A stretch of DNA of 64,000 nt from contig JBEKVT010000001.1 of NCBI GenBank assembly GCA_049997795.1, positions 4,085 through 68,084 on the forward strand, given 5' to 3'. Origin of the DNA: Minisyncoccia bacterium (lineage in GTDB: Bacteria; Patescibacteriota; Minisyncoccia; Phycocordibacterales; PALSA-1337). A program made the position numbers and the translations under genes. The notes beneath the pieces are model-generated. The model ran no database searches, was not told the DNA's origin, and saw only the letters and a list, made by a program, of their open reading frames with translations. This document shows positions 43,496-55,650 of this stretch, piece by piece (the first letter of the stretch is position 1; the number at the start of each line of letters is the position of its first letter).

Positions 43496-45211
43496 TCAAA
43501 ACTCTATTTTCTGGAGCGACTTGTGCGGAATATATAGGAAGAAGGCTATTATAGCCACGGAAACAGCGACGAATAGCCACAAGAGGGATGTTCCTTGTCC
43601 GAGAAAGAGGCGGTATATCGAGATAGTGCCGAGCGCTCCGTAAGCGAGCGACGAGAAGACGAAGGCGAGGCCCGGAAGCGAGGTGGTGATGACTTCCGGA
43701 TCGTCGGTCTCGAAGTTCGGGAAGAGCGCCCCGAGACCGAGGGCGAAGACGGTCAGAGTGCTTATCGCCAGGATGAGGAGCAAGACGAGGAATAGGCTGA
43801 GAGGTAGGATGCTGCCGATGATGGCCACATTCAACCCGGCGAAGACGATCCCAAGGGCCACGCCGAACGGCACGAAGAAAAGGAGCTTGGTGAGAAAGAC
43901 CTTGCCGAGATCGACCGGCGCGCTCCCGACGAGCCATGCAGTCTTCTTTTCGATGCTCAAGGAAGGAAAGACGAAACGGAGGATGAACATATCGACGAAG
44001 TATATGGCGATGGCGAACTGGAGAGCGCCTATTGCGATCGGGATCACGTTCGGGTCTATCCCGCCGCGGCCTACTTGATGGCGCAAGACCACGTTAAGGG
44101 AGCTCTGGACGAGCCATATGGCTAAGAGGAAGCATGACCAGGCCAAGCCGCGGCCGTTCCTAAAGAAGGCGATCGCTTCTTTGGCGAAGATGGCGCCGGT
44201 CGGGCTCCTGGCTTTCAACATGAGGCCGGTACCGGGCGACTTGCGCCTAGACTGCTTGCTGTCCGCTTGAAAATTCCCCTCCTGGAGGATCTGCCAGAAC
44301 CGAAGATGCCTCTTGCTGAATATATACATGAGGATGAAGCCGGCGACCGAAAGAACCAAGAGATAAAAGGTCGAGGCGAGCGCCCCGGCGGTATCGCCCT
44401 TGCCGGCGTCAAAGAGCTCCATGGCGGCCGGGTGAGAAGGAAAGACCGAGAATCTGTCGGCGACTGACGTTATGCTTGCCGAGGCGCTGTCGAGGCTGGT
44501 CGCCTCGAAAAAGCTCCCGAAATCTATGCCCCGGAGCCGCACAAAGCCGAATGCGAGCGCGACGAGGAAGACAGCGGCTATGGAAAGGAGGAGATTCTTC
44601 ATCGAAAGCAGGGGGCACCCTCCTGCTTTCCGCATGGCATCGAGGAGCCACGATATGCCGAGGACGAGCGCCATAGCGAAGATAACCGCCATGGCTAGGA
44701 ACAGAGCCAGGGAAACAAGCGATAGGAGAAAGGCACCAGCCGCGAGACCCGTCGTATTTCTCACGGCGAGAAGGGCAGGAAAGGCCAAGACTATGAAAGG
44801 CCACAAAGAGGCCAGGAAGGACTTGACGAAGACGAGAGATGGCACGGTCCCGAATCTGGGCGAAGCCATGAGGATATCCTGGTCGCTCTTATTGAAAAGG
44901 GCGAAGACGCTCACGATGAGGGCGCTCGTGAAGGCCAGCATGAAGACGATCAGGAGGAAGAGCTCGTAGATGTAGAGAGTGACGGCATCCCTGAAGAATG
45001 GATAGCCGGCGATGAAGCTGAACCCGGCCTTGAAGAAGAAGTATATGCCAGTAGCGAGACCAACGACGAGGAGCAGGAAGAAGAAGGCCGTTATGAGCTT
45101 GGCGGTCCTGTTGCGTTCGAAGTATCTTTCGGCGCGGCGAAGGGACAGACAGAAGAAGGCGGTGATCATGCTAGACATTGATCGCGGCGTAAAGCTCCTC
45201 GAGCGGGGCAT
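43496..45211 (-). CDS. Large polytopic membrane protein, probable ABC exporter permease partner of the upstream ATPase
   Basis: 571 aa with more than 12 hydrophobic segments. It overlaps the 3' end of the ABC ATPase gene. Confidence 0.5.
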   Translation of the reverse strand: MPRSRSFTPRSMSSMITAFFCLSLRRAERYFERNRTAKLITAFFFLLLVVGLATGIYFFFKAGFSFIAGYPFFRDAVTLYIYELFLLIVFMLAFTSALIVSVFALFNKSDQDILMASPRFGTVPSLVFVKSFLASLWPFIVLAFPALLAVRNTTGLAAGAFLLSLVSLALFLAMAVIFAMALVLGISWLLDAMRKAGGCPLLSMKNLLLSIAAVFLVALAFGFVRLRGIDFGSFFEATSLDSASASITSVADRFSVFPSHPAAMELFDAGKGDTAGALASTFYLLVLSVAGFILMYIFSKRHLRFWQILQEGNFQADSKQSRRKSPGTGLMLKARSPTGAIFAKEAIAFFRNGRGLAWSCFLLAIWLVQSSLNVVLRHQVGRGGIDPNVIPIAIGALQFAIAIYFVDMFILRFVFPSLSIEKKTAWLVGSAPVDLGKVFLTKLLFFVPFGVALGIVFAGLNVAIIGSILPLSLFLVLLLILAISTLTVFALGLGALFPNFETDDPEVITTSLPGLAFVFSSLAYGALGTISIYRLFLGQGTSLLWLFVAVSVAIIAFFLYIPHKSLQKIEF

Positions 45212-45893
45212 CGGCGCCCCTGCGCGTCTTGTCTCGGAGCTCGGCTATGGTGCCAGCGAAGACGAGCTCGCCTTTTTTCAAGACGCCGATCCGGCTGGAG
45301 ATCTCCTCCGCGAGGCTGAGGGTGTGGGTCACGAGGAATATCGTTCCGCCGCCGCGGACGAAATCTCTGAAGATCTTCTTGGTCGTCGTGGCGCTCTCCG
45401 GATCGAGGCCGACCATTGGCTCATCCACGAGAAGAAGCCGGGGCTCGTGCAAAAGGGCGGCCAGGATGACGAATTTCTGCTTGTTGCCGCGCGAATAGTC
45501 CTCGAAGTATTCCCTCTCGACGCCGTCGAACTTGAACAAAGGGAGAAGCTCGGCGATCCTCCTCTTGCGGGCGTCTTCCGGCATGCCGTAGAGGGCGCCG
45601 ACGAAATGAAGGAACTCCAGGCCGGTCATGCCGGTCCAGGCCGTCGGCTCATCGGGGACGTATCCGATCATCTTCTTGGCGGCGATCGGGTCGGCGACCG
45701 GGTCCGTTCCCCCGACGGATATGGCCCCAGCGTCGAGGCGCAATAATCCGGCGACGAGCTTAACGATGGTCGTCTTGCCGGAGCCGTTCGGGCCGATCAG
45801 TGAGAAGATCTCGCCGGCTCCGATACTGAATGAGACGCCTTTGACGGCGGTCTTGGCTCCGAAACTCTTCTTTATCTGTTTCACCTCGAGCAT
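45171..45893 (-). CDS. ABC transporter ATP-binding protein
   Basis: Walker A GPNGSGKTT, signature ...YSRGNKQKFVILAALL and Walker B LLLVDEPMVGLD. Confidence 0.9.
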   Translation of the reverse strand: MLEVKQIKKSFGAKTAVKGVSFSIGAGEIFSLIGPNGSGKTTIVKLVAGLLRLDAGAISVGGTDPVADPIAAKKMIGYVPDEPTAWTGMTGLEFLHFVGALYGMPEDARKRRIAELLPLFKFDGVEREYFEDYSRGNKQKFVILAALLHEPRLLLVDEPMVGLDPESATTTKKIFRDFVRGGGTIFLVTHTLSLAEEISSRIGVLKKGELVFAGTIAELRDKTRRGADAPLEELYAAINV

Positions 45894-46486: not shown

Positions 46487-46984
46487 ATGAACAGATACTT
46501 GCGCCTTGCCTCGGTCGCCGCCGTCTGCGCTTATTTCTGGTACTACGCCAAGACCTACACGGAATGGCATTTCATCGACAACGCGAATCTAGTCTTCCAT
46601 GAGGCCGGGCATGCTATTTTCTTCTTCCTCGGCATGTTCGTGAAGATTGCGGCCGGCAGCGGCTTCCAGGTCGCCCTTCCCCTCTTCATATCGCTCTATT
46701 TCTTCGTGAGGGGCCAGAAGATATCCGGGGCGCTCTGCCTCTTGTGGGTCGGCCAGAACTTGTTGAATGTCTCCGTCTATGCCGGAGACGCCGTGAATAT
46801 GCAGCTCAACCTCCTCGGCGGTGACGCCGTCATCCATGACTGGAATTATCTCTTGAGCGCACTCGGAGTCCTGCGCTACACATCCGAGATCGCTTCAACG
46901 ATCTACATGACGGGGCTCGCGACAATATTCCTCGGGACTGTCTTGTCTTTGTATTATTCGTGGGTGGAAGAATCTCGATCATAA
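46487..46984 (+). CDS. Small polytopic membrane protein with an HExxH motif (putative intramembrane Zn-metalloprotease, S2P/M50-like minimal form)
   Basis: 165 aa. HEAGHA lies inside a predicted TM helix (LVFHEAGHAIFFFLGMF). A later ...NLLGGDAV... recalls the M50 LDG motif. It is convergent with the peptide gene. Confidence 0.45.
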   Translation: MNRYLRLASVAAVCAYFWYYAKTYTEWHFIDNANLVFHEAGHAIFFFLGMFVKIAAGSGFQVALPLFISLYFFVRGQKISGALCLLWVGQNLLNVSVYAGDAVNMQLNLLGGDAVIHDWNYLLSALGVLRYTSEIASTIYMTGLATIFLGTVLSLYYSWVEESRS

Positions 46985-46992
46985 AATAAAAA

Positions 46993-47016
46993 GGCCATCT
47001 GCTCTCGCAGACGGCC
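46993..47016. terminator. Bidirectional intrinsic terminator hairpin between convergent genes
   Basis: GGCCATCTGC-TCTCG-GCAGACGGCC (10-bp stem, 1 mismatch). On the minus strand it is followed by TTTTTATTTTAT (plus-strand 46981-46992). Confidence 0.55.
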
Positions 47017-47031
47017 CTAGAATGTGGCCGG

Positions 47032-47166
47032 TCAGCTGACTTTCGGATCAAGCTTCACGGCGGCGCATTTCGTGCAGGTGTTCTGCCTGCACTGACACAT
47101 GCTGTGAGACAGGCCCGTGAATCTCGTCAGCTTGCGGACCTTCGATCTGACGCTGAGTTTCTTCAT
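47032..47166 (-). CDS. 44-aa Cys-containing peptide, candidate RiPP precursor
   Basis: MKKLSVRSKVRKLTRFTGLSHSMCQCRQNTCTKCAAVKLDPKVS. A perfect SD (AGGAGG) sits 9 nt upstream of the ATG. The ATG is 4 nt after the rSAM stop. A terminator follows within about 15 nt. The track shows only an over-extended 86-aa frame. Confidence 0.55.
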   Translation of the reverse strand: MKKLSVRSKVRKLTRFTGLSHSMCQCRQNTCTKCAAVKLDPKVS

Positions 47167-47170
47167 GGTG

Positions 47171-48508
47171 TTATACCTCCTGTTTTGCTCCGAAACTGGT
47201 GAGCGTATGATATATGAAGGAACGGATATATTGGCAGAAATTCGGGTTAGGCCGTCCAAAATCATTGCGATTATAACGGCAACCCCCGCCACATGTTCCC
47301 ATGAAAGGACAGGATCTGCAAGACGCGATCTCCAGAGTCGTCTCCCTAGAGAAGCTCGACCATAGAGGATTGTCCTGGATATTCATCTCGCTATCAATCG
47401 GGATCCAGAAGTCCGTGTTGTGCAGGAAGGCTTGGCATGGGCCGATAAGGCCGTCGGCGCTCACGACCATCTGGCCGCGATATCCGGCGTCGCATTCCGC
47501 TATGACAAACCTGCTTTCCGCGATCCCTCTCAGATATCTCAGCCCCCTCGGTTCAAGAATCCCCCGGGCGAGGAGCCTCCGGTATTGAGCCGACATCTTG
47601 CGACCGAGATCGTCCCAAAACGACAGCTCTTCCTCAATGGATTCGCCGGCCTGTCTTATGCTGAGGTTGAACCCTATGCCCCGGATGTCTTCCCTGACGA
47701 AGAAATCCGTGATTTGTTCCAGGTGCGGCGCGCTCTCGCGAGTGACCGTGCAAAGAGCGGCATATTCCACTCCTGCCCTGCGGCATTCGTTTATAAGGCC
47801 AAACGACTGCTTAAAGACGTCAATGTTGGGCTTCCTCGGAACACGAGCGGCGTTGGTTATCTCAGAAGGGCCGTCGATAGAGACTCCGATGGTGATGCCG
47901 TTTTCTTTGCAGAACTCGATCAATCCGGCCGGGCGCAGAGTCCCATTCGTGGTTATCTGTATGCTGATCTTTCTTTTTCCATATCTGTCGCGTATGTATC
48001 GGACGCACCGCGTTATCTTATCCCATTCGATGAGCGGCTCGCCGCCATAGAAGAAGATTGATTTTTCTCCTCCATCCAGGGCCATGAAATAATCGACGGC
48101 TTCTAGCATCTTGGACAGGTCCAAAGACCGTCGCTTCGAGAATCTCAGGAGATTCTCGAAGCAATATCCGCAACAGAGATTGCAGAGATCGGTCATCACC
48201 AAGATGAGCGTCGAGACCTTGGCTTTTTTGAGATGCCGCTGTACCTTTGCAGAGACTTCGTCAAAAAGACGCTCGTCGTCTCCGGTTTCAACCATCAAAC
48301 GACTATCTTGGAGATTCCGTATTTCCTTCGTTGTGGGCTGATTTACTAGTATCCGATTCGTCGTTTCTTCGTCACACACAATTACTGTAGAAGTCAGAGA
48401 ATGCAATAGGATGCTCCAATCGGAATAACGCAACATAAACGCAAACTCCGACCAGCTGTTACCCAAGCATTCACGAAGCGAAATGATTTCCTTACCTAAA
48501 GTGATCAT
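47171..48508 (-). CDS. Radical SAM / SPASM-domain enzyme (peptide-modifying maturase-like)
   Basis: 445 aa. CNLCCGYC is a CxxxCxxC motif; then GGEPL. The C-terminal SPASM reads ...CRSCPFMGTCGGGCRYN...NFCQ. An N-terminal extension of about 100 aa could be an RRE. Confidence 0.85.
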   Translation of the reverse strand: MITLGKEIISLRECLGNSWSEFAFMLRYSDWSILLHSLTSTVIVCDEETTNRILVNQPTTKEIRNLQDSRLMVETGDDERLFDEVSAKVQRHLKKAKVSTLILVMTDLCNLCCGYCFENLLRFSKRRSLDLSKMLEAVDYFMALDGGEKSIFFYGGEPLIEWDKITRCVRYIRDRYGKRKISIQITTNGTLRPAGLIEFCKENGITIGVSIDGPSEITNAARVPRKPNIDVFKQSFGLINECRRAGVEYAALCTVTRESAPHLEQITDFFVREDIRGIGFNLSIRQAGESIEEELSFWDDLGRKMSAQYRRLLARGILEPRGLRYLRGIAESRFVIAECDAGYRGQMVVSADGLIGPCQAFLHNTDFWIPIDSEMNIQDNPLWSSFSRETTLEIASCRSCPFMGTCGGGCRYNRNDFGRPNPNFCQYIRSFIYHTLTSFGAKQEV

Positions 48509-48648
48509 TATTGTCCCCTCTTTTTGTTTTTTAAAAGAACCTGACGTTCAGTTTTTACCTTACTACTTCGTTCTGGTTTGTCAATCAAAACCGCCACGCG
48601 GATCCGGTGGCTGCGAGCGGTACGGCACAAGATCAAAGTTTATTTCGC

Positions 48649-49854
48649 CTATCCAGAACCGCCCGTCGAAGTCGCCACTTGATACAAGCCGCGCACTCCC
48701 CACCAGGCGGTGAAATAGAGCTTGTCCGCTTCGGGAGAATACAATATCTCGTTAAGCTCGGGAGTCTGGTTTTTGATGTCGAGAAGGGCAGCGTTGTCCA
48801 ACAACTGATATCGCCGCAGGTCTCTCAGGTCTTGTCCGGGAAAGACGTCGATGGTACCGTCTTCCGCCGCGTTGTAAAGATCGGCGCCGTAGACGAAGAG
48901 CCCGAGAGAGGCCCCAGGCAGGGAGAATCGTTCGAACGACATATCGCCGGTCTTGACCCTTATCCCGTAAGGGACCGACTCACAACCGATGTAGACATAT
49001 CCGGACGACGTAGCGGTCTTCACGAAAGGCATGTCGTTGCTTATGTCGCACGGCTCGACCTTCATGGAGGAGATGGGGGCGAGCGTAATCGCATCGGCTT
49101 TCTCGAAGCCGTTCGACGTGCCGCCGCCGAAATAGAGCTCGGTCGAGCTCGCGTATACGCCGATCGCTGCGGAGTGGCCGTAAGGGATATGTCCCACGGA
49201 GTTAAGGGCGAGCCTGCCGTCGCTTATCCTGACGCGGAAGACGCTGGACGGGTAGGTGTTGGTGATCCCGTATATGTAGGCGCCGTCGGTCACGATGGCC
49301 GGTCTGCGGCCGGCATCGACGGAGCTCGTGCTTATGACGGTCGAGACCGCATAAGTATGCGGATCCAAGCTATAGATATCGAGCGAGCCGTTGCTCGAAA
49401 GATCGAGATACACCTTGTCGTTCAGCGGATCATAGACCATGGTCCCGATATCCCCCGCAACCGGGAGTCCGACCAGGATCGGACGGAAGATATCCGCGGC
49501 GTCGAAGACCACCACCTCATTCGTAGGGAAAGGATTGCTGCCGAATCCCAGCATGCCGATAAAGATCCTGCCGTCGGCGACGGCCGTTCCGTGGGCATAG
49601 GCGAGAATATTCGGGGATCTGGCCGAGACTCTGGCGGTGCCAAAAGCCGTTCTAGGCTGGATAGCGGAAAGGACAGTGCGATCGATATGATGGCTCAAGA
49701 TCGCCAGTGGAGCGGTTCTGTGCGGGGAAACGAACGGCTCTATCCAGGCCGGTCCGGCAGCGATGCGGGTCTCGCGCCAACAATACGCAAAAAAGACGAG
49801 GGACAAGAGAGCGAACAGGGCCGCAATGATGGTGGAGGGCTTCTTCATGTCCAA
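48649..49854 (-). CDS. Secreted beta-propeller repeat protein (YVTN/PQQ-like repeats)
   Basis: 401 aa with an N-terminal signal/TM. Repeated beta-strand blades contain recurring ...DG..Y.G.. motifs. Confidence 0.5.
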   Translation of the reverse strand: MDMKKPSTIIAALFALLSLVFFAYCWRETRIAAGPAWIEPFVSPHRTAPLAILSHHIDRTVLSAIQPRTAFGTARVSARSPNILAYAHGTAVADGRIFIGMLGFGSNPFPTNEVVVFDAADIFRPILVGLPVAGDIGTMVYDPLNDKVYLDLSSNGSLDIYSLDPHTYAVSTVISTSSVDAGRRPAIVTDGAYIYGITNTYPSSVFRVRISDGRLALNSVGHIPYGHSAAIGVYASSTELYFGGGTSNGFEKADAITLAPISSMKVEPCDISNDMPFVKTATSSGYVYIGCESVPYGIRVKTGDMSFERFSLPGASLGLFVYGADLYNAAEDGTIDVFPGQDLRDLRRYQLLDNAALLDIKNQTPELNEILYSPEADKLYFTAWWGVRGLYQVATSTGGSG

Positions 49855-49884: not shown

Positions 49885-50643
49885 CTAAACCTCAATCCTC
49901 GAGAACAGCCACGCTCCGATGGCGAGGAACACAAGGGCAACGGCGGCAAGGACGCCGGCGTCGGTCCAGAGACTGAGACTGGACAAACCGGAGAGGGCAC
50001 CGCGCAAACCGTCGACGCCGTAGAAGAGCGGGTTCCCGTAGAGGACGGTCCGCAGGGCGGCCGGAGCTTGGTCGAGCGGAAAGAGCGCGCCGGAGAGGAA
50101 GAAGACTGGCATTACGACGAAGTTCATGATGAGCTGGAAGCCTTGCATGTCGTTCAGGGTGGAAGCGATGGCCGTGCCGAGAGCCGTGAAGACCAGAGCT
50201 ATGAGCAACATGAATGCGAGAGCCGGCAGAAGAAGCGTCAATTCCGGCCGGAAGCCGGCTATAAGCGCGATAAGGAAGACCACGACGCCCTGGAATGAGG
50301 CCACGGTCGCCCCGCCCAGGCTCCTGCCGAACATGATGGTGAAGCGGGAGACCGGCGCCACCATGGTCTCCTTGAGGAAGCCGAACTGCCTGTCCCAGAT
50401 GATCTCGATCCCCGAGAAGATGGCCGTGAAGAGGATGCTCATGGCGATGATGCCCGGCGCCAGAAATTGCAGGTAGTTTCCTTCGCCGGCCTTGGCGAAG
50501 ACGGGACCGAGGCCGTAGCCCAGAGCGACCAGGAAGAGGAGCGGCTGGCCCAGGGAACCTATGAGGCGCGAGCGCGAGCGGAAATAGCGCTTGATTTGCC
50601 TGAGCCAGAGGATGTATATGGTGTAAAAAAGATTCGGTTTCAT
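49885..50643 (-). CDS. ABC-2 type transporter permease
   Basis: 252 aa, 6 TM, with a typical ABC-2 layout. Confidence 0.8.
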   Translation of the reverse strand: MKPNLFYTIYILWLRQIKRYFRSRSRLIGSLGQPLLFLVALGYGLGPVFAKAGEGNYLQFLAPGIIAMSILFTAIFSGIEIIWDRQFGFLKETMVAPVSRFTIMFGRSLGGATVASFQGVVVFLIALIAGFRPELTLLLPALAFMLLIALVFTALGTAIASTLNDMQGFQLIMNFVVMPVFFLSGALFPLDQAPAALRTVLYGNPLFYGVDGLRGALSGLSSLSLWTDAGVLAAVALVFLAIGAWLFSRIEV

Positions 50644-50653
50644 GGCGGTTCAT

Positions 50654-51463
50654 TTAACGGCGTCCCCACGCTCTGGTTCTCTGGCGGAGATGCTCGACCG
50701 GCCCCGCATCCTCGTCGCGGATGGCATGCCCGGTCAGCTTGATGAAGGCGTCTTCCAGGGTCGGCGTTCCGGCCTTCTTCTTGATCTCTTCGACGGTGCC
50801 CATGGCCACGAGCTTGCCGTGATCGATGATGGCCACGCGGTCGGCCACGCGCTCGACTTCATCCATGTAATGCGTGGTGAAGAAGATCGTCAGGCCGCGT
50901 TCCTTGTTCAGCTTCTTCAAGTATTCCCAGATGTGATTCCTGGTCTGCGGATCCAGGCCGACCGTCGGTTCATCAAGGAAAAGGATGGCCGGCGTGTGGA
51001 GGAGGCCGCGGGCGATCTCAAGGCGCCGCTTCATGCCGCCGGAGAAGGTCTTGACCAGATGGTCCTTGCGGTCCCAGAGCTCGACGAAATGCAAGAGCTC
51101 CTTGATGCGGCCCGGCGTCTCGGAGCGCGGCACGCCGTAAAGGCCGGCGTGCAGGAACATGTTCTCGTAGGCCGTGAGCTCGTCGTCCAAGGACGGATCT
51201 TGGAAGACGATGCCGAAAGAATGCCTGACCAGGTCAGCGTCCTTCGTCGGATCGAAGCCGGCGACGGAAAGGGTGCCGCTCGTCGGGCGGATAAGAGTGG
51301 TCAGCACTTTGATGGTCGAGGTCTTACCGGCCCCGTTAGGCCCCAGGAAAGCGAAGACCGAGCCTGTGGGTACGTCGAAAGATATATCGGAAACGGCCGC
51401 GATAGGGCCGTATTTTTTCACCAAGTTCTTTACGGATATGGATGATCCTGCGGTCTCTTGCAT
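50654..51463 (-). CDS. ABC transporter ATP-binding protein (ABC-2 exporter ATPase)
   Basis: Walker A GPNGAGKTS, signature FSGGMKRRLEIARGLL and Walker B ILFLDEPTVGLD. The start is probably MQETAGSS; the track ORF begins a few codons earlier at 51484. Confidence 0.9.
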   Translation of the reverse strand: MQETAGSSISVKNLVKKYGPIAAVSDISFDVPTGSVFAFLGPNGAGKTSTIKVLTTLIRPTSGTLSVAGFDPTKDADLVRHSFGIVFQDPSLDDELTAYENMFLHAGLYGVPRSETPGRIKELLHFVELWDRKDHLVKTFSGGMKRRLEIARGLLHTPAILFLDEPTVGLDPQTRNHIWEYLKKLNKERGLTIFFTTHYMDEVERVADRVAIIDHGKLVAMGTVEEIKKKAGTPTLEDAFIKLTGHAIRDEDAGPVEHLRQRTRAWGRR

Positions 51464-51579
51464 GTCTACTTCTTGTTCCTCCAAGCGTGCTTCTTGGCGA
51501 GGCGCTTGGCGGTCTTCCTGGAACGCGACGTCTTCCTCCTGGTGTTTATCCTTTTGGCCATGTTATGGGATTGTGCGAT

Positions 51580-54552: not shown

Positions 54553-55650
54553 ATGAATATCGTAGCCCGGAACAGGCCGACAATCTCGCTGGGGACGCTG
54601 GGCATCGCAGGCGCCTGCGCTGTCCTCGCTATAGCCCTTTTTGCCGTTACCGCTCCGAAAGTCCATGCTTTTGGCCATAATTTCGGCGGGGATAGTTATA
54701 ACAACAATAGCGGCAGCCACAACGGCAATGGGGGCGGTTTTCCAAACAGTGGAGGCAATAACAATGGGAGCGGAAATAATTGGGGCAGTAACAATGGCGG
54801 TAACGGCAACGGTCGGAATAACAATAATAATGGCGGCGGCCAAAACAACAACACCGGCGGGCCCGATTCACATTGGCTGGACCATCGGATCACCCAGCCC
54901 CCTTTTCAGAATTATCATTACCCCGTTCCGTCTTTTCCACATTTTGACCATCCTCATTACCAGCCGCCCGTGATCCAACCAGTCACATATTATCAGCCGA
55001 CCCAATATATCTATCAGTCGGTTCCGACTTATTCCTATCAAAGCTATCCAGACTATTATCAGTATCCCACTAGCTACAGTTACCCGACTACGTACTATCA
55101 GCAACCGACTCAGATATACGCATATCAGACGCCTTCATACCCCTACTACACGAATAACCAATATACCGTCACCGGCCAATCCAATAATTCGAATGAACTG
55201 AACATCAGCTGCTCCGCCGAACCTTCCGCGTCAGCCGTCGGCCAGCCCGTCACGTGGACCGCCACGGTCACCGGCGGCGCGGCGCCTTACACGTACTCGT
55301 GGTCCGGATCCGACGGGATCTCCGGCTCGCAGGGCTCGGTCACGAAGTATTACGATTCCGCCGGCGAGAAAACCGCCATAGTCATGGTGACTTCCGCAAA
55401 CGGCCTGACCAGCACACATCCTTGCGACAACACGTTGACGGTGCAGGGCGGCGGCCAGGGAGCCTATCTCCCGCAGACCGGCGCTGCCGCTCCCTCGCAG
55501 ACACCGGTCGAGAACGGCAACCCGAATGCGGCCGCGGCCGCGCTCTCCAACGTCCCTTGGGGATGGCTAGCGTCCCTCATCATCCTGGTGCTTCTTGGGA
55601 CGATGGCGTATCTTCTGTTCGAGCGCCAAAAGGTAAAGATCAGTCCTTGA
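54553..55650 (+). CDS. LPXTG-anchored cell-surface protein with Gly/Asn-rich and Tyr/Gln/Pro-rich low-complexity regions and an Ig-like domain
   Basis: Signal peptide, a GGNNNG... tract and a YQ(Q)P/T repeat tract. The C-terminus has LPQTG, then the hydrophobic WLASLIILVLLGTMAYLLF, then the charged ERQKVK: a sortase sorting signal. Confidence 0.7.
   Translation: MNIVARNRPTISLGTLGIAGACAVLAIALFAVTAPKVHAFGHNFGGDSYNNNSGSHNGNGGGFPNSGGNNNGSGNNWGSNNGGNGNGRNNNNNGGGQNNNTGGPDSHWLDHRITQPPFQNYHYPVPSFPHFDHPHYQPPVIQPVTYYQPTQYIYQSVPTYSYQSYPDYYQYPTSYSYPTTYYQQPTQIYAYQTPSYPYYTNNQYTVTGQSNNSNELNISCSAEPSASAVGQPVTWTATVTGGAAPYTYSWSGSDGISGSQGSVTKYYDSAGEKTAIVMVTSANGLTSTHPCDNTLTVQGGGQGAYLPQTGAAAPSQTPVENGNPNAAAAALSNVPWGWLASLIILVLLGTMAYLLFERQKVKISP

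Follow-up and report, generated by a model that had tools for sequence, protein, structure and literature searches.

The closest described counterpart of the locus considered here is SCIFF, a system of the ranthipeptide family represented by ScfA/ScfB, by CteA/CteB of Clostridium thermocellum and by Tte1186a/Tte1186, in which a radical S-adenosylmethionine (SAM) enzyme matures a small cysteine-rich peptide. The SCIFF precursor, of about 45 aa, consists of a basic leader and, at the C terminus, a Cys-rich core, with six Cys residues in the precursor model TIGR03973, and is encoded upstream of a maturase that joins a recognition element (RRE) for ribosomally synthesized and posttranslationally modified peptides (RiPPs) to a radical SAM core and a SPASM domain, with three plus seven cluster-binding Cys residues. 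The system is reportedly little more than a two-gene cassette, lacking a dedicated protease or exporter; its hosts are Clostridia, and we know of no biological role for it. Here, we describe a gene pair of comparable design in a 64,000-nt stretch of DNA (the window) from a metagenome-assembled genome of a Minisyncoccia bacterium, a member of the Patescibacteria or candidate phyla radiation (CPR). It comprises a gene for a 445-aa radical SAM/SPASM enzyme (47171..48508, minus strand) and, directly downstream, a gene for a 44-aa Cys-rich peptide (47032..47166, minus strand). By analogy with SCIFF and other ranthipeptide systems, the pair is reasonably likely to be a minimal RiPP cassette that installs Cys thioethers.

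The two genes are tightly arranged. Only 4 nt (CACC) separate the stop codon of the enzyme gene (TAA, 47171 to 47173) from the ATG of the peptide gene at 47166, and an AGGAGG ribosome-binding site (47176..47181, minus strand), read from the sequence, lies inside the final codons of the maturase gene, 9 nt before that ATG. Downstream of the peptide gene, a strong, G+C-rich hairpin with a 12-bp stem (seven G-C pairs), a 4-nt loop and a T-rich tail, TTTTTATTTT, forms a predicted intrinsic terminator (46981..47018, minus strand) that would end the two-gene unit; in the reading we favor, both genes would be transcribed together. An earlier note on this DNA, which proposed the pair as a translationally coupled candidate for a novel RiPP system, had already recognized the enzyme with its CxxxCxxC motif, the 44-codon gene 4 nt past its stop codon, the consensus Shine-Dalgarno sequence and the terminator, and all of these are indeed present. 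Its description of the peptide gene as unannotated needs correction, as NCBI lists the product as hypothetical protein ABSF56_00270 (MGC9605187.1). The NCBI model of the enzyme itself (MGC9605188.1) is only 374 aa long and starts at Met72, thereby cutting residues 1 to 71 (48296..48508, minus strand) and, with them, most of the RRE domain. The gene calls of JGI and Logan give the 445-aa form, and since 11 orthologues align from residue 1, we take this longer form to be correct. We discarded a promoter-like match at 48535..48507, as its -10 hexamer runs into the start codon of the enzyme gene and shuffled sequence is expected to yield about as many promoter hits as this region does.

The ORF list (ORF, open reading frame) of the window holds dozens of entries of about 44 codons, and at 56% GC this length by itself is within chance. 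What lifts the peptide ORF above chance is its recurrence and the specificity of its core motif. Taking as orthologues the enzymes that are 37 to 68% identical to the window enzyme, we fetched their contigs and examined the sequence that follows each gene. In 12 of 12 distinct loci (the window, L167, L001, L009, L004, L168, L090, L171, L169, L005, L172, and L092), a peptide gene of the same type, encoding 41 to 49 aa, follows directly on the same strand, with an intergenic distance of -4 to +47 nt and a GGAGG-type ribosome-binding site 5 to 9 nt before the peptide start. It was on this conservation beside orthologous radical SAM genes that the earlier note had staked its proposal. On visual inspection, most of the orthologous loci show a hairpin and then a T-run past the peptide gene, the terminator scan itself having covered the window locus. 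A regular expression for the core matches just the orthologous loci and gave no match, in any frame, in ∼150 more distant ones. Comparison of the window peptide gene with that of L167 gave 28 codon differences, 19 of them synonymous and 9 non-synonymous; we count this as support for purifying selection on the peptide.

The conserved unit is confined to these two genes. Six-frame BLAST of the flanks revealed no further neighbor shared among the 12 orthologous loci, so that the evolutionary unit appears to be exactly the enzyme and its peptide, while the neighborhoods are otherwise unrelated. Together with the low G+C content of the enzyme gene (0.51 versus 0.565 for the window), these unrelated neighborhoods suggest that the cassette moves horizontally. 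The peptides are largely missed by gene callers: a 5.8-billion-cluster protein collection contains just 4 of the 12. With the window peptide as query, both a word-indexed search and a full phmmer search of 1.84 billion representatives returned the peptide itself only, and a profile built from all 12 peptides recovered only three orthologous ones, namely, those that gene callers had called.

The window peptide, MKKLSVRSKVRKLTRFTGLSHSMCQCRQNTCTKCAAVKLDPKVS, divides into two parts, as the earlier note had described. Residues 1 to 22 include seven Lys or Arg residues and no acidic residue, as in a basic leader, and are followed by a core of the form C24-x-C26-x4-C31-x2-C34 and then by D40-P41. The four Cys residues were thus correctly recognized in the earlier note, while the spacing between the second and the third is four residues, not five. 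In an alignment of the 12 peptides, K9, C26, D40 and P41 are invariant, C24 is nearly so, and a leader motif, [LMFI]-[TI]-x-G, recurs (L13-T14-x-G in the window peptide). The cores fall into two subtypes which follow the enzyme clades. The first, C-x-C-x4-C-x2-C-x5-D-P-[KR], occurs with enzymes 58 to 68% identical to the window enzyme, and the second, C-[IV]-C-R-G-x-C-[IV]-C-x5-D-P-[KV], with enzymes 37 to 46% identical; the Cys spacing thus covaries with the enzyme, a point that the earlier note had put forward as a check. The number of Cys residues varies from two to five, with only one of them invariant. By contrast, the last Cys and the invariant Asp are separated by exactly five residues in 10 of the 12 peptides, a distance kept even in L005 and L172, which carry an extra inserted 'AC'. 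The peptide gene that follows the enzyme gene in every one of the 12 loci, the leader motif (K9 and L-T-x-G) and the conserved Cys/Asp-Pro core are the features of a RiPP cassette, and from them we infer that the peptide is the substrate of the radical SAM enzyme.

The enzyme is a radical SAM protein by two measures: the CxxxCxxC motif for the SAM-binding 4Fe-4S cluster (C109, C113 and C116; 48161..48184, minus strand) is invariant, and the Pfam model PF04055 scores 62.8 bits against a gathering cut-off of 29.5, this core being the only part that Pfam recognizes. The orthologue alignment (12 sequences) spans the full length of the protein, and a second one comprises 65 homologues. In both alignments, the C-terminal region (47234..47494, minus strand) shows seven invariant Cys residues, arranged as C339-x13-G353-x4-C358, C397-x2-C400-x5-C406-x3-C410 and C425. 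This is the motif that we used to define a SPASM domain with two auxiliary 4Fe-4S clusters, CX9-15GX4C ... CX2CX5CX3C ... C. All ten Cys residues, i.e., these seven plus C109, C113 and C116, map one-to-one onto the ligands of CteB, which are C104/C108/C111 for the radical SAM cluster, C344/C362/C413 for auxiliary cluster 1, and C400/C403/C409/C432 for auxiliary cluster 2 (PMC10177961). Cluster binding by the window enzyme is therefore predicted to follow the same three-plus-seven scheme.

The predicted structure points in the same direction. With the 65-sequence alignment as input, AlphaFold2 gave a very confident model (pLDDT 95), for which the best PDB match in Foldseek was CteB (5wgg), aligned along the full length (E 9e-22, 462 columns). 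Next came anaerobic sulfatase maturase, matching in the core only, and then TigE, SuiB and ChlB. CteB is also the best PDB match by sequence profile (E 1.6e-33). Together with the Cys motif, the fold matches to CteB and to the sulfatase maturase place the C-terminal region among SPASM domains.

The N-terminal domain (residues 1 to 97; 48218..48508, minus strand), presumed to be the docking site of the leader, is predicted to fold into three strands followed by three helices. This is the PqqD-like winged-helix architecture of an RRE, and the earlier note's suggestion that the first 100 or so residues form such a domain is thus supported at the level of the predicted fold. When the isolated N-terminal model was run through Foldseek, RRE proteins ranked first, without reaching significance, and a sequence-profile search of the domain against the PDB found nothing. 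Cys45 of the enzyme (48374..48376, minus strand), which would lie in strand 3 of this domain, is invariant among the 12 orthologues and not so in the 65-sequence alignment.

How, then, does the enzyme relate to curated maturase families? The NCBIfam similarities are full-length or nearly so, and the best ones are all to peptide maturases: FibroRumin (141 bits), PapB (125), HxsB (108), CcpM (103), QhpD (94) and SCIFF (92), followed by anaerobic sulfatase maturase (91). The FibroRumin maturase model (TIGR04136), which covers residues 54 to 414 of the window enzyme, is the top curated model for all 12 orthologues (best E value, 5e-43), yet its cut-off of 400 bits lies far above the score. Likewise, PapB (NF047865), the maturase of the ranthipeptide freyrasin, is second best and shares the auxiliary-cluster ligand scheme, while its cut-off is 340. 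PapB joins a Cys sulfur to the beta carbon of Asp, and the acidic acceptor near a Cys would find a parallel in the Cys-x5-Asp arrangement seen here; on the other hand, PapA contains the CX3D unit six times (PMC10177961), while the present peptide has a single invariant Asp, five residues past the last Cys.

With SCIFF the present pair shares the overall plan, namely, the size and layout of the precursor, the domain order and Cys scheme of the maturase, and the absence of a dedicated protease or exporter. It differs in that the SCIFF maturase model (TIGR03974) is far from reached (cut-off, 425), the core has two to five Cys residues plus the invariant Asp-Pro rather than six Cys residues, the precursor gene follows that of the enzyme instead of preceding it, and the hosts are CPR bacteria, not Clostridia. 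In sum, the cassette appears to work like a SCIFF/ranthipeptide system while belonging to no curated family, and the peptides match no NCBIfam precursor model either.

On this basis, the favored mechanism would run as follows. The basic leader (K9, L13-T14-x-G) would dock on the N-terminal RRE domain, and the Cys-rich core would then enter the active site of the radical SAM/SPASM enzyme, where a core Cys thiolate could bind the iron left open on auxiliary cluster 1. The 5′-deoxyadenosyl radical would take a hydrogen from the acceptor residue, and a thioether from Cys sulfur to carbon would form, of the sacti- or ranthipeptide type, as in CteB, Tte1186 and PapB. The argument for thioether chemistry is that the window enzyme has the scheme of these three enzymes, in all of which auxiliary cluster 1 has three Cys ligands and an open site; selenium spectroscopy has placed the cross-linking residue at that site (PMC10177961). 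Indirectly, the same three-Cys scheme supports the class of sactipeptides and ranthipeptides, while the evidence from sequence and model does not distinguish an alpha thioether from a beta or gamma one. The best conserved candidate for a cross-link would connect C34 to the invariant Asp40 in a Cys-x5-Asp ring. We propose this link, which is speculative, because of the constant five-residue spacing and the Cys-Asp precedent of PapB (PMC10177961). The remaining Cys residues may serve in further thioethers, in disulfides or in a metal site. A cyclophane or a Lys-Trp cross-link was rejected as unlikely, since aromatic residues are not among the conserved positions of the core.

Several observations weigh against this reading. 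The thioether chemistry is argued by analogy, and the Cys pattern of the window enzyme also occurs in SPASM enzymes that catalyze other reactions. The enzyme is no more than about 21% identical to CteB, and neither it nor any other of the 12 orthologues comes near the curated cut-off of an NCBIfam model; for both reasons, function cannot be transferred with confidence. The Pfam model of the SPASM domain, PF13186, found no match in the C-terminal 109 aa even at E≤10, and neither did Pfam PqqD in the N-terminal domain. Of the twin-cluster SPASM domain claimed by the earlier note, the motif, the full-length maturase matches and the fold are therefore what stands, the Pfam model being silent. As the orthologous flanks contain no conserved protease or exporter, the pair itself does not account for leader removal and secretion. 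Lastly, the L168 peptide (2097-2239) has only two Cys residues (..RQCATHNCAFPSYRLKLDPRVK), with nine residues from the last Cys to the Asp, which means that a fixed Cys-x5-Asp ring is not universal. The corresponding enzyme (P0006) looks intact, and this natural variant therefore constrains which of the Cys residues could be essential.

These same observations feed the alternatives. It is possible, if rather unlikely, that enzyme and peptide are indeed partners but engage in another chemistry, such as epimerization, a C-C or C-N cross-link, Cys oxidation or the making of a cofactor. In the last case, the Asp-Pro-Lys region might give rise to a small peptide-derived cofactor, comparable to PQQ or mycofactocin, with the Cys residues acting as metal or cluster ligands. 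That no curated family is reached, that C26, D40 and P41 are the only invariant residues of the core, and that the L168 peptide gets by with two Cys residues would all agree with such a departure, and the missing exporter and protease would fit an intracellular product. However, the closest relatives in sequence and fold that have a three-Cys auxiliary cluster 1 are thioether synthases, the lack of a conserved core aromatic argues against cyclophanes and Lys-Trp links, and cofactor pathways need more conserved enzymes than the flanks provide, which is none. A related view, which we regard as decidedly unlikely, holds that the modified peptide stays inside the cell and serves genome-reduced CPR bacteria in a dedicated role (for example as a redox-active or metal-binding peptide or as a cofactor) rather than being secreted as an antibiotic-type RiPP, and that the modification centers on Cys26 and Asp40-Pro41, maybe through an undescribed cross-link. 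If true, this would be the first characterized RiPP from CPR bacteria, representing a wider, uncatalogued set of radical SAM cassettes with Cys-rich peptides in Patescibacteria and DPANN.

Two further explanations deny that the peptide is a substrate. The C-x-C...C-x2-C pattern resembles metal-binding knuckles, and neither a protease nor an exporter, both usual in RiPP clusters, accompanies the pair; hence the small protein might be a Cys-rich metal-binding partner (zinc-ribbon-like or iron-binding, an electron donor or chaperone) of an enzyme that acts elsewhere. We consider this very improbable, as a family with two to five Cys residues and a single invariant one would make a poor structural metal site, the enzyme has an RRE domain, a module dedicated to leader binding, and the N-terminal half of the peptide resembles a conserved leader instead of a folded domain. 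Least credible of all is that the peptide ORF is a chance occurrence and the enzyme an anaerobic sulfatase maturase (anSME) or a SPASM enzyme of some other non-RiPP kind. Many short ORFs occur in the window, and anSME (PDB 4k36-4k39) is the second-best match of the catalytic core both by fold and by sequence in the PDB; the two enzymes have in common a radical SAM core and a SPASM fold with twin clusters (TM 0.77 to 0.80, normalized to the target). However, the peptide gene in 12 of 12 loci, its Shine-Dalgarno site and its synonymous excess effectively refute a chance ORF. anSMEs act on sulfatase proteins, are not known to have an RRE domain, and carry auxiliary clusters that are both fully Cys-ligated; the window enzyme has seven auxiliary Cys residues rather than eight, and its N-terminal domain lies outside the coverage of the solved sulfatase maturases. 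In keeping with this, the anSME model (TIGR03942) stays at 91 bits versus a cut-off of 349, and the grouping with anSME that the earlier note had named as damaging to its case did not occur. The partner in the orthologous loci is the conserved peptide gene and not a sulfatase, a search of the window for sulfatase genes having formed no part of the analysis. The reading as a RiPP maturase with its substrate peptide thus came through every prediction that could be tested in silico, its chemistry being reasoned from better-studied relatives.

Beyond the orthologous loci, radical SAM relatives 24 to 30% identical to the window enzyme occur in Patescibacteria and DPANN. They have the same domain architecture, and small Cys-rich precursors are encoded upstream of the enzyme (L020, L024, L027, L029, L122; L031, L036; L016; L095). 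Example precursors include KCGTCACKCACRYN, GRCGMCSGRCGK, AHASKCGTCACKCACRYN and CICRGRCVC...EPK. In contrast to the window cassette, the leader and the C-terminal motifs differ and the gene order is reversed. None of the five precursors tested against NCBIfam reached a family, nor did the L095 enzyme, the sole enzyme of these relatives to be scanned. This L095 enzyme is 30% identical to that of the window, and its upstream peptide (1152-1358) carries CICRGRCVC...TEPK. Because L095 has this core upstream, the association of the enzyme lineage with the core, including the acidic residue before Pro-Lys, would be older than the gene order. L036 and the orthologue L001 come from the same genome, which accordingly harbors two such systems. 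As judged from these sequences, there is a wider, uncatalogued set of radical SAM cassettes with Cys-rich precursors in Patescibacteria and DPANN.

Turning to the surroundings of the cassette in the window, an ABC-2 exporter pair (permease, 49885..50643; ATPase, 50654..51484; both minus strand) lies upstream on the same strand as the radical SAM gene. Between this pair and the radical SAM gene, there is a gene for a 401-aa protein with a hydrophobic N terminus (48649..49854, minus strand), which matches neither Pfam nor NCBIfam. We rejected the exporter pair and the 401-aa protein as parts of the cassette since both are absent from all the orthologous loci. A second ABC system occupies the other side (43496..45893, minus strand), comprising an ATPase (45171..45893) and a 571-aa PF16949 membrane protein (43496..45211). 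The flanking of the cassette by two transporters is seen in the window genome only. Farther away, a 365-aa protein (54553..55650, plus strand) combines Gly/Asn-rich and Tyr/Pro/Gln-rich low-complexity regions with a sub-threshold PKD match, an LPQTG motif and a C-terminal hydrophobic segment, features by which it may be a surface protein.

In the literature, we found no description of the 12-locus family and no characterized RiPP from Patescibacteria or other CPR bacteria, a search that left aside the supplementary list of a 15,000-member compendium of RRE-associated radical SAM enzymes (PMC10288494), which may include the orthologue KKQ53569.1. The novelty put forward in the earlier note thus holds at the level of the family, while the kind of system is well known: this is a new family within a familiar class of modified-peptide systems, and it leaves knowledge of the enzyme class unchanged. 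To a specialist it would come as no surprise, yet it offers a compact entry point, two genes in ∼1.5 kb, to RiPP chemistry in CPR bacteria. The locus also flags an annotation problem, in that most of the RRE domain is lost from the NCBI model and the majority of the peptide genes go uncalled. The natural peptide variants, with two to five Cys residues and either Asp or Glu before Pro-Lys, offer a ready mutational series for cross-link topology. Given the tiny genomes and episymbiotic lifestyles of CPR bacteria, a conserved and apparently mobile cassette of this kind provides a lead on how they may interact with their hosts or neighbors.

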